Of a DNA stretch of 64,000 nt, positions 9,001 to 12,000 are shown in pieces. Positions within the stretch are counted from its first letter, which is position 1, and each line of letters begins with the position of its first letter. Made by a program: the position numbers. Source of the DNA: a virus (Duplodnaviria > Heunggongvirae > Uroviricota > Caudoviricetes); IMG/VR virus record IMGVR_UViG_2718217789_000003; one strand, given 5' to 3'.

Positions 9001-12000
9001 TAAGACCACTCGTGATGGGGTTGGCCTGTGTAGTTTGTCGGAGCTAATCGCCTCCTGACTTTGCAGGTTTGCGCGACGAGCTCTACGGCGAGAAGCTGCG
9101 GTGCCTTTAAATTCTGTTTTTCTGGACATAGATTCCTCCCGAATAAACTTTGGCGATGCAATCTCGAAGCTCCTCCTGAGACGGTTGCTTCGGCATTGCA
9201 TCCCACAGCTTATGTGGTTGGGTGATCTGGCTTTTCAGCCACGTAGTCGAGAGTCGACGTTGTTTAAAGAGCCTGCCAGTCTGTTCCATTTGGCTTCCAG
9301 CGTCCTGCTGATGGTTAAATAGTACGATATGTACTTCACTTGGTCAATACAATTTGTTCTAAAACGGGGCGTTTTTTTACAACGCTTTGTATTTAATAGT
9401 ATTGTTTTTTAGCGTGGGTGTATTGCCTCGGCGATGTAAGGAGAGATCAGAATTGCGTTGTTTAGTGAGTTGTATCTATTTATTTTCCAATAAATACAAT
9501 TGGTTATGTGTTTTTTTGGGCGAGAGGAAAAGAAAACCCGGCATGGAGGCCGGGTTGATGATTAGCGGTGTGGCCTTGAGCGATAATGCTCACACACATG
9601 TTCAAGATTTCCATGCCTTATCCGTTCATAGGCATTCACATGAACTTCTCGATCGAATTGGTCATTCAAATTGTATGTAGACATCTGTGTTTTCTCATAT
9701 TGGCGGCAGCCCTACAACCGCTTGAAAAAATGTACCAGACGCGCTAAGGTTACATCGCAAATATTGTGTACCTTAACAAGGGCTCCTTTTGGAGGCTCTG
9801 GTTAAACAGCATCAATGTCGGACTGGGGAGTTGGACATTGTGCTGAATGCTTTTGCATTATTGAGGCCGAACGTAAACCTTCAGAATTGAAGAGATGCGT
9901 TCGGCTTCTTCGTTTGTGATATCGTTAGGAATGCCTTTAATCGTTACTGTAACCCCTGATTCAGGTCGAAGAACTACTGGAAGATCATAGGTATGAAGTG
10001 CATTAGCCTTGCCTTCGACTTTTGTTGGTTCGCCAGTCAAATCTTTTTCCTCACTGGATTCTTTGTCAATCGGAGTGTATGGGATTTCTTCACCAGACTG
10101 GAAAGCTACAAACTTTTTGATTGCACTTTCCATGCGGCTTTTATATGCAGTAATGCTGCTGTCGCTAGGCTTCGGCTCAGTTGCGTTGATGTATCGCTCG
10201 GCAAGCTCATTCACATCAAGCTGAGTAACATCACCCATTTCCTCTTCTTGGACTACCGTTAAGAGGCGAGCGGATGAGTTTTTTAAATTTCGAGCGGTGG
10301 CCTCCTTCATTATGTTCAGCGACATAAGCTCTTCAAGGAAGTCCTTGAATGCCTGCACGCTAACGTTTGACTTTGCCATTTGCTCTCTCTCTAAGTTATT
10401 GACTCAGATCGAGTTTATCCAGGAATTGATTTGCATGCAAGACTCAAGTCTTGAGAATTTCCGTTCAAGATCCACTCTCAATAAAAAAGGCCGCACCTCT
10501 GCGACCTTTCATCTCCTAAATCTCTTTTCTCTTACCTAAAGAAACAGCAGGCTGGGTCAGCCCTAACAACTTCAAGTGCATCGGTCAGAGAAAGCTCCGT
10601 GCTATACAGGTGTTATTTCATATCTTTTTGCATCCAATAAATTTTCCATCTGTCCAGAGAGCGGATGCACTTGATTCTTGTTGATGGCAGGACGTTTTTT
10701 CACCTGCCTCACCCTGCCATACAGGACGCTGCTCACCGATATCTATCGTCCGGTCATTGATGTTATAGACAATATCCAGATCATTACGGATATACTCAGA
10801 TGGCCTTATGCTTTCAATGAATAGATGAACTTCTTTTTGACCGCTTGATACTCATGGCCATTAAACTCCATCTATCCTCTTTACCCAAACGTCTCTTCAG
10901 GCCATTGGCTGGCGATAACTTTCCCCACAACGGAACAACTCTCATTGCATGGGATCATTGGATATTGCGGGTTTAGTGGTTGTAGAAACACCTGACCGCT
11001 ATCCCTGATCAGTTTCTTGAAGGTAAATTCATCACCACCAAGTCTGGCTATGCAGAAATCGCCGGGCTCAACAGCTTGCTCAGGGTCAACCAGAATTAAC
11101 ATCCCGTCAGGAAAACTAGGTTTGGAACCTGTTGGTGCGGTCATTGAGTTACCTTCAACCTCAAGCCAGAATGCAGAGTCACTGGCTTTTTTGGTTGTGC
11201 TTACCAATCTCTCCGCATCACCTTTGGTAAAGGTTCTGAGTTCTGGAGAGAACATCCCAGCCTGAACATGAGAAAAAACAGGGTACTCATATTGTTTTTT
11301 AACTGGGGCCGATGAGTATTCGCCAACAGGTGAAAATGTCCCGTCGTGGTTGAATGATATGTTATCAATACCAAGGTATTTAAACACCACACCAATATCA
11401 CTAAGAGATGGATGACGAGATCCGCGCAACCAGTGTCCAATTCCACCCTGCGTCATACCTAGCTCTTCGGCTAACTTCTCTTGAGTTATGCCGAGCTCTT
11501 TCATTCTGGATCTAGCCAGTTCATACCATTTCATTTTCATGTCCTTATTATTACGCTCTGTACTGGAACCATCCATGCACAATGTGTATTTTTACTTGTA
11601 TTTGAGAAGTACATATTGTATTTTTTTATTCGTGGTTACTATGGAGGGCATATGAGCAACCTACGAAAATATCGAGAGTCACTGAATATCTCTCAAACAA
11701 CACTTGCTAAGGCAGTTGGATGCACACAGGGAGCTATCGGACATTGGGAATCTGGTCGTCGCTTCCCAGACCTTAAAACATGCCGTGCTCTTGTTGCGTG
11801 TCTAAACAAGTTAGGCGCAAAAGTAAGTCTTGATGACGTGTTCCCGCCGGAGCACAAAGCCGCTTAATAAGCGGAGCCGCTCTTTGTAACAACGGACATT
11901 CGTCCTACGTCGCTGAAAAGCGAGTCCCAAGATATCTGACCAACTAAGGCCATATGCGTTTCCACGCATACCTTTCAACTAACTATTCACTATTGGAAAT

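Follow-up and report, generated by a model that had tools for sequence, protein, structure and literature searches.

The region between the cI repressor gene and N in the 64,000-nucleotide (nt) phage sequence IMGVR_UViG_2718217789_000003 (hereafter, the window), a Shiga toxin (Stx) phage of the VT2-Sakai type, very probably carries an autonomous cassette of several parts that is expressed in the lysogen. Read along its transcript, the cassette would comprise a terminator, a promoter, a gene that we call A, a folded RNA of 173 nt, a small open reading frame (ORF) in a position that we call the B slot, and a second terminator (Table 1). Gene A encodes an acidic protein of 173 amino acids (aa; pI 4.85), with cI and N domain matches on either side, and appears as H0093 in AP000422, as "ORF b63" in AP005153, as ECs_1184 (ECs1184) in prophage Sp5 of strain Sakai, and as WP_001130059.1 in RefSeq. 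The original prediction described this ORF as a stand-alone moron at the position of lambda rexAB, with its own promoter, palindrome, and terminators, encoding a candidate exclusion or antiphage function of no recognized family. The ORF and its signals are borne out by our analysis, but the gene does not stand alone, as it shares the transcription unit delimited by the two terminators with a conserved structured RNA and a small ORF. Gene A itself is already on record, both as a hypothetical protein and as a gene flagged undeletable. The architecture of the cassette and the fold of protein A appear not to have been described, and the same goes for the RNA motif, for the interchangeability of the small ORFs, and for a decayed PDC-S43 neighbor; our literature search turned up no account of the cassette, of its RNA, or of any of the small ORFs, and a paper on the small RNA HnrS concerns other prophages.

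Two intrinsic-terminator-like hairpins bound the unit. The one between cI and gene A (GGUCGCAG..GUGCGGCC followed by U6AUU) folds at -16 kcal/mol (z -3.3) and is predicted to end the cI transcript upstream of the cassette. It is nearly base-for-base alike in Salmonella phage Oslo, in Proteus prophages, and in the prophage of E. coli SH2026Stx1, despite protein A identities to the window of 77%, 73%, and 40%, respectively. The second hairpin, just upstream of OL/pL, has an 8-base-pair (bp) stem with six G-C pairs and a T-rich tail (-14.3 kcal/mol; z -4.8). It is annotated in AP000422 as the terminator of the pRM transcript, and relatives have an equivalent hairpin behind their small ORF. This downstream terminator had also been predicted, but the prediction omitted that it lies 300 nt past the stop of the ORF, an interval filled by the structured RNA and a 40-aa ORF.

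The predicted promoter (TTGCAT-17-TAAACT) is present upstream of gene A. It matches the sigma-70 consensus at 7 of 12 positions and is unlisted by a consensus scan of the region, which returned 6 sites against 5.0 ± 2.4 in shuffled sequences; given this partial match and the lack of any excess in the scan, the promoter of the window taken alone is no better than chance. The relatives make a stronger case: of 49 distinct homologue upstream regions, 44 contain the pattern TTGNNN-16..18-TANNNT at a distance of 15 to 60 nt (mostly 25 to 33 nt) from the gene, compared with about 10% of their shuffled versions. Because these upstream regions are mutually related, this count, like the one given below for GATC, does not represent independent events. 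The promoter-like element is kept whether the homologue lies between cI and N, in the nin region, or next to int/xis. In Yersinia phage YP3, the pattern search was empty upstream of the gene A homologue, where TGTATAAT, resembling an extended -10 element, can be seen by eye.

The perfect palindrome CTCAAG-N-CTTGAG (CTCAAGTCTTGAG), also foreseen, lies beside the -35 element and is a possible operator. It is the sole copy in the window, where no repeated candidate binding sites were found; at least one match with no more than one mismatch occurred in 11 of 100 shuffles. Close relatives carry a palindrome at the same spot with changed outer bases (TTAAGACTTAA and TAAGACTTA), and palindromy is retained despite changed bases in Cronobacter, in Yersinia, and in one IMG/VR relative. 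Moreover, 37 of 41 distinct relatives have a GATC within the 90 nt that precede the gene, whereas 23% of control windows contain one, an enrichment that suggests methylation- or SeqA-sensitive expression, or else an operator. Counted as sites, GATC (the Dam target) is enriched about sixfold in these 90 nt across relatives, and it is often doubled (GATCGATC) or present as TTGATCG overlapping the -35 element.

Autonomy is therefore supported by signals of the cassette's own: a conserved terminator that insulates gene A from the cI transcript and a promoter whose position is conserved in several contexts. A moron in the sense of Hendrix is by definition dispensable cargo. Sequence and comparative evidence place this insert, like a moron, between its own promoter and its own terminator, and it is very likely expressed from the repressed prophage; unlike a moron, it has several parts and has been reported as essential to the lysogen.

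Homologues of gene A occupy the same accessory slot between cI and N in lambdoid prophages of several genera, as a comparison across phages made clear. They were found in prophages of Proteus, Providencia, Morganella, Salmonella, E. coli SH2026Stx1, Serratia, Yersinia, and Cronobacter, behind cI genes that vary in length and domain call and with varying neighboring cargo. Homologues are not confined to the immunity region: in Enterobacter prophages they belong to the nin/late accessory zone, and in Yersinia phage YP3 the neighboring genes are int/xis and gin. A scan that sampled each species by one genome yielded one locus.

The interval between gene A and the small ORF is occupied by a conserved structured RNA, which we refer to as the leader. 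The 179-nt stretch 9682..9860 (minus strand) has a minimum free energy of -54.1 kcal/mol (z -3.9), matched by 0 of 200 shuffles. We applied RNAalifold to MAFFT alignments, not fitted to structure, of two leader subtypes: alpha, to which the window belongs (n = 6), and beta, the commonest (n = 16). Both share one architecture, in which a hairpin (H1) comes right after the stop codon of gene A and is followed by a long composite stem; the conserved box on which this stem closes, TAGCGG, reads TAGCGC in the window. Further 3' come a U/A-rich stretch, a TCAAG box, and later the Shine-Dalgarno sequence of the small ORF. Covariation supports the fold in both subtypes, with 10 compensated pairs in alpha (4.7 ± 1.6 in shuffled alignments; 0/500) and 13 in beta (6.2 ± 1.5; 0/500), compared with only 1 to 3 and 2 to 5 pairs, respectively, when partners were slid. 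An additional helix, H4, was called by RNAalifold in the alpha alignment alone; in beta it can be seen by eye in each sequence and goes uncalled on the MAFFT alignment. A third subtype, gamma (SH2026Stx1, YP3, and others), has the same helices and boxes. The RNA is always located between a lysogeny-associated gene and a small ORF. The top of H1 (window 9817..9836, minus strand) is reverse-complemented relative to phage Oslo and locus L075 (GTCCAACTCCCCAGTCCGAC versus GTCGGACTGGGGAGTTGGAC), and the same flip separates two Enterobacter loci, L012 and L013 (around 6550-6560; CTCGCCAAAG versus CTTTGGCGAG); it swaps the arms of the stem and keeps the stem.

A mixed MAFFT alignment of all leader subtypes gave just 4 pairs with RNAalifold, and the subtypes were therefore analyzed separately. 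Because a covariance model of the beta leader failed to detect the alpha element of the window, even with filters off, we treat the three subtypes as one motif on the basis of their architecture and shared TAGCGG/TCAAG boxes rather than on score. The RNA has no match in Rfam 15: the window gave only a chance-level match to GadY (E 0.79), well below the gathering score, and five related loci gave nothing at gathering thresholds.

Nearly all phage-borne homologues of gene A are followed by a small ORF, 147 to 174 nt past their stop codon, and then by a terminator. These ORFs fall into three families: the H0092-like proteins of 40 to 44 aa (H type), represented in the window and found at the same offset in phage Oslo, in SH2026Stx1, in L080, and in gamma-type loci; a basic 57-aa protein (S type; phrog_33859); and a 47-aa CxxC...CxC protein (Z type). 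The Z-type protein has a subthreshold match to a treble-clef zinc finger, and the other two families contain Cys and His. No relation among the three families was found with hhalign, and none of them matched a PADLOC model. Within each type, B is more conserved than A; in the S type, mean identity is 78% for B and 47% for A, with B higher in 52 of 55 pairs. When IMG/VR was searched with the 57-aa B protein alone, an A homologue lay 148 to 161 nt upstream in 32 of 32 loci. The reverse does not hold, since A occurs without an intact B in YP3 and in L045.

The leader and the small ORF also occur without gene A. A pattern search for the gamma leader returned 40 stretches, 25 of them distinct, with an A-family gene upstream in 6 of the 25. 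Four more lack a called upstream ORF, one of which represents 12 identical stretches with the SH2026Stx1 small ORF, and the remaining leaders start immediately downstream of a stop codon, either that of a Peptidase_M78 (ImmA/IrrE-like) gene or that of a gene for an unrelated acidic 146-aa protein. In Klebsiella phage ST846-OXA48phi9.2 (L124 665-1845), for instance, the leader and a zinc-finger-like small ORF lie behind an XRE and Peptidase_M78 pair. Leaders following the Peptidase_M78 gene or the 146-aa protein were also seen in L128, L133, L134, L142, and other viral contigs. One could propose that the functional unit is the folded RNA with the small ORF, acting for example as a regulatory RNA or as a translationally gated small zinc-binding effector, while A, as ImmA or the 146-aa protein would in other loci, only supplies upstream transcription. 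The gamma leader does follow three unrelated gene families, always right after the stop codon, neither leader subtype nor small-ORF family tracks the A phylogeny, both being reshuffled, and covariation in the RNA is strong. However, gene A is under strong purifying selection, encodes a near-invariant C-terminal motif, and has its own conserved promoter; moreover, A is the gene reported as undeletable, and it persists where B has been lost. Of the readings weighed here, we regard this one as the least probable.

Protein A matches phrog_2602 over its full length (E 3.5e-102; residues 1-173 on profile positions 1-173 of 173), and no model of Pfam, NCBIfam, or the 5,027-model PADLOC set matched it. 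The earlier statement that no family could be recognized thus holds for these three collections and gives way to phrog_2602 and to a core-binding-like fold. The AlphaFold model, computed with 106 diverse homologues, has a mean predicted local distance difference test (pLDDT) score of 89.5 and consists of a four-helix core-binding-like domain (residues 8-95), a low-confidence, acidic disordered linker (about 101-128), and a C-terminal domain formed by a beta-hairpin and a helix (130-169; pLDDT about 96). The N-terminal domain has the four-helix, SAM-like organization of the core-binding domain of tyrosine recombinases, and 11 of the 106 family members give weak matches to Phage_int_SAM, below Pfam thresholds. 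The profile and structure searches called for earlier were run; Foldseek returned nothing at E <= 0.001 against the PDB and BFVD, and a sequence search of PDB chains gave chance-level matches only. The catalytic R-H-R-Y domain is missing, as the linker is followed by the beta-hairpin and one helix without any Phage_integrase match; lacking this domain, protein A is not a recombinase. No enzymatic or membrane domain was found in it.

The family of protein A comprises 659 representative clusters (50% identity; E <= 1e-3), all of about 165 to 200 aa and with both domains. Its most conserved part is the near-invariant C-terminal motif P..LR......V.I.G.P.DLT..EA..I, and the gene is under strong purifying selection. 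The idea that the C-terminal beta-beta-alpha domain is of the His-Me/HNH type was dropped, as it has no conserved His or Cys, and its AbrB- and RHH-like resemblance was noted by eye only, without profile support.

Recombinase-derived phage regulators are exemplified by MrpR of SPbeta and SroF of phi3T. Protein A differs from these, and from the core-binding domain of tyrosine recombinases, in ending at residue 173 without a catalytic domain and in having an acidic domain in its subfamily; its sequence matches stay below Pfam thresholds, and its structural matches are not significant. A might be a lysogeny-maintenance factor acting on the phage switch, for example as a co-repressor, by blocking an antirepressor, or by occupying recombinase- or core-type sites. 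Its loss would then induce or destabilize the prophage, and the leader and small ORF would be unrelated riders. We consider this unlikely, since homologues lie far from the immunity region (the Enterobacter nin/late-moron zone; int/xis and gin in YP3), the wider family extends to chromosomes such as that of a Paracoccaceae genome, the N-terminal domain is acidic, and the window yielded no candidate binding site in repeated copies. In addition, many lambdoid phages, including lambda and 933W, maintain lysogeny without gene A.

The original prediction regarded A as a single-protein superinfection-exclusion or antiphage gene, which would make the failure to delete it a technical matter. The slot between cI and N does house exclusion genes, such as rexAB in lambda. 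A comparable case is that of BTP1, in which bstA lies downstream of the repressor (PMC8585504). A promoter of its own and expression in the lysogen would suit such a gene, and its neighbor in relatives is the PADLOC candidate PDC-S43. An exclusion or defense role nevertheless fits poorly, because ECs1184 reportedly could not be deleted from an Sp5 lysogen, whereas lambda lysogens tolerate the loss of rexAB. Using sacB allelic exchange, Mondal et al. (PMC5155283) made marker-free, in-frame deletions of Sp5 in MG1655 and obtained 43 mutants; ORF23 (ECs1184) and ORF21 (ECs1180) were the only two never obtained. That the same method gave 43 other Sp5 mutants speaks against a technical failure; the lack of any PADLOC match and of enzymatic or membrane domains also weighs against an exclusion gene, and such a gene would leave the further conserved parts of the cassette out of account. 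A simple dispensable exclusion gene is thus less likely, although expression in the lysogen, which had been predicted along with it, is supported by the recovery of the protein from uninduced Sakai cultures. Indeed, ECs1184 was detected by the Tree laboratory in the RNA-associated proteome (TRAPP) of Sakai, with a false discovery rate of 0.065, just short of significance (PMC7618764), from which we infer that protein A is made without induction.

We tentatively favor an addiction-like or abortive-infection module in which A holds a harmful product in check. A would restrain this product by repressing its own palindrome-flanked, GATC-marked promoter or, alternatively, through an effect on the folded leader RNA. 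Most simply, the product would be the small protein B encoded behind the leader, and loss of A would be lethal to the lysogen. The neutralizing role of A, the toxicity of B or of another product, and any antiphage benefit are what we infer from this arrangement.

Type II toxin-antitoxin operons and prophage addiction modules, such as phd-doc of P1, offer the closest comparison. The cassette resembles them in its acidic upstream protein, which according to the literature could not be removed, in its more conserved small downstream protein, and in the palindrome at its promoter; furthermore, the upstream gene survives alone, and the S-type downstream gene was never seen alone. It departs from them in lacking tight coupling, as the gap (173 nt in the window, 147 to 174 nt in relatives) is filled by a structured RNA, and in the interchangeability of three unrelated downstream families, of which the Z and H types also occur behind ImmA-like and 146-aa genes.

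Several observations weigh against such an addiction-like module. The failure to delete ECs1184 is a negative result from one study and may stem from the deletion acting in cis and not from the absence of the protein; this is conceivable because an in-frame deletion would put the promoter directly before the leader and the small ORF. In the polynucleotide kinase (PNK) assay, ECs1184 gave a signal like that of the GFP control, "not a strong RBP" (RNA-binding protein; PMC7618764). The phage subfamily is acidic, and the N-terminal domain of the window protein has a net charge of -4, poor for DNA binding; distant members of the family are chromosomal (as in the Paracoccaceae genome), mostly basic, and without the cassette. 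Neither A nor any B matched PADLOC, and the 173-nt structured gap is unlike classical type II toxin-antitoxin operons. Since leaders and ORFs of the Z and H types also follow genes other than A, the leader and B form a unit of their own. Finally, three unrelated B families lie behind closely related A proteins, which makes a specific protein-binding antidote an unlikely role for A; the control by A would probably be exerted at the level of expression.

A bolder reading is that VT2-Sakai-type Stx phages carry between cI and N a modular system of three parts and of a kind not described before, namely A with its core-binding-like fold, the TAGCGG-box RNA, and an exchangeable small protein, which is zinc-ribbon-like in the Z type and contains Cys and His in the other two. 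Together these parts would make the prophage indispensable to its host or trigger abortive infection. The RNA and the ORF would then be a mobile add-on docking behind A, XRE-ImmA, or 146-aa genes. We hold this possible, though doubtful. Should A indeed hold the lysogen hostage, or stabilize lysogeny, this would bear on the persistence and induction timing of Shiga toxin prophages. Gene A forms part of the immunity region in phages of the Stx2a type. The analysis also defines an RNA motif that is absent from Rfam and present in many enterobacterial prophages, three tiny conserved protein families, and a large uncharacterized protein family built on a recombinase fold without its catalytic domain.

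The placement of gene A at the position of rexAB holds in the sense of an accessory slot between cI and N and fails as a strict equivalence. Far from being spacer, the 370 bp that separate cI from the hairpin are a broken DUF3024 gene, which starts 9 nt after the cI stop codon. Since it lies behind cI and upstream of the terminator, this pseudogene is the true occupant of the rexAB position. It shows 81 to 85% aa identity, over three frames, to the intact 113-aa gene of SH2026Stx1, and is complete apart from two frameshifts and one in-frame stop; its profile matches are PF11225 (E 5e-4) and phrog_3467 (E 7e-16), and the intact homologue matches the candidate defense model PDC-S43 at E 7e-42. 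The gene is found intact directly behind cI in Proteus prophages (L006 5422-5763) and in SH2026Stx1 (L019 1970-2311), and a different gene takes this slot in Yersinia prophages. PGAP calls a 66-aa fragment of the pseudogene with an ATT start (WP_434088152.1).

Gene A is like rexA-rexB in its map position between cI and pL/N and in its expression in the lysogen. It differs in that rexAB is cotranscribed with cI from pRM, whereas gene A, judging by its sequence, has its own promoter behind a conserved terminator; the gene cotranscribed with cI in this lineage would be DUF3024/PDC-S43, decayed in the window. Gene A also has no homology to RexA, RexB, or catalogued defense genes (PADLOC, Pfam, NCBIfam) and, in contrast to the dispensable rexAB, is reported as undeletable.

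Table 1. Features of the cI-N region of the window and of related loci. Positions are those of the window unless a locus is named.
Feature	Position	Strand	Remarks
N	8857..9201	-	N_peptide, E 2e-32
Intrinsic-terminator-like hairpin ending the cassette	9525..9556	-	Stem 9535..9556 plus T-run; just upstream of OL/pL
Small ORF H0092 (B slot)	9562..9684	-	40 aa; His/Cys-rich; phrog_21154
B slot in other loci	L006 6675-6848; L040 5690-5833		
Conserved structured RNA	9685..9857	-	173 nt; fold and covariation
RNA part: H4	~9703..9721	-	In the 3' part, with the TCAAG box and a GAG Shine-Dalgarno-like sequence
RNA part: long composite stem	~9734..9802	-	Closes on the TAGCG box
RNA part: H1	9807..9845	-	
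Structured RNA in other loci	L006 6523-6674; L019 3035-3207; L124 1519-1695		
Gene A (H0093/ECs1184/WP_001130059.1)	9858..10379	-	173 aa; ATG start
GATC sites	10407..10410; 10469..10472		The site at 10407 is two bases past the -10, at the expected start point
Promoter-like element	10412..10440	-	-35 TTGCAT 10435..10440; 17-nt spacer; -10 TAAACT 10412..10417; 32 nt before the ATG
Perfect palindrome CTCAAG-N-CTTGAG	10443..10455		2 nt upstream of the -35
Intrinsic-terminator-like hairpin between cI and gene A	10480..10510	-	Hairpin 10485..10510; T-run to ~10480
DUF3024 pseudogene (PADLOC PDC-S43 candidate defense gene)	10538..10871	-	Starts 9 nt after the cI stop
cI repressor	10881..11582	-	HTH_3 and Peptidase_S24; annotated as cI in AP000422 and AP005153; deposited start internal

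The 1.6 kb around the ORF match at 100% the phages VT2-Sakai, Stx2 phage II, the Morioka Stx1 phage, 1717, 2851, the PA series, and others, and the region is present in 235 of 5,426 complete E. coli genomes, almost all of them O157:H7. From 12486..13307 (plus strand) onward, the replication module of the window consists of a 273-aa replication protein; strain NE92 has the same 273-aa gene followed by a DnaB-type helicase, and the RefSeq annotation of Sakai Sp5 gives O and P. Because its replication module differs from the O and P of Sp5, the window is a mosaic of the VT2-Sakai type and not Sakai Sp5 itself.

The second gene never deleted from Sp5, ECs1180 (8547..8798, minus strand; 83 aa; phrog_2471; no Pfam match), lies downstream of N and has no BLAST match in the IMG/VR loci that bear gene A. 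N has an ambiguous start: its longest ORF has 114 aa, the form given in AP000422 and RefSeq has 90 aa, and PGAP adds a 60-aa ORF (ECs_5705/WP_000438343.1) that overlaps its 5' part. The breakpoints at 10508/10512, apparent module boundaries, were rejected as such, as they correspond to insertions of IS1203. Some strains carry this insertion sequence (IS629-type) between cI and the cassette, and two different sites are involved, around 10508/10512 and around 10782 (L003 and L005). In strain NE92 (L004), an IS-bounded deletion has removed the whole stretch that runs from gam to the end of the cassette, pL and N included.

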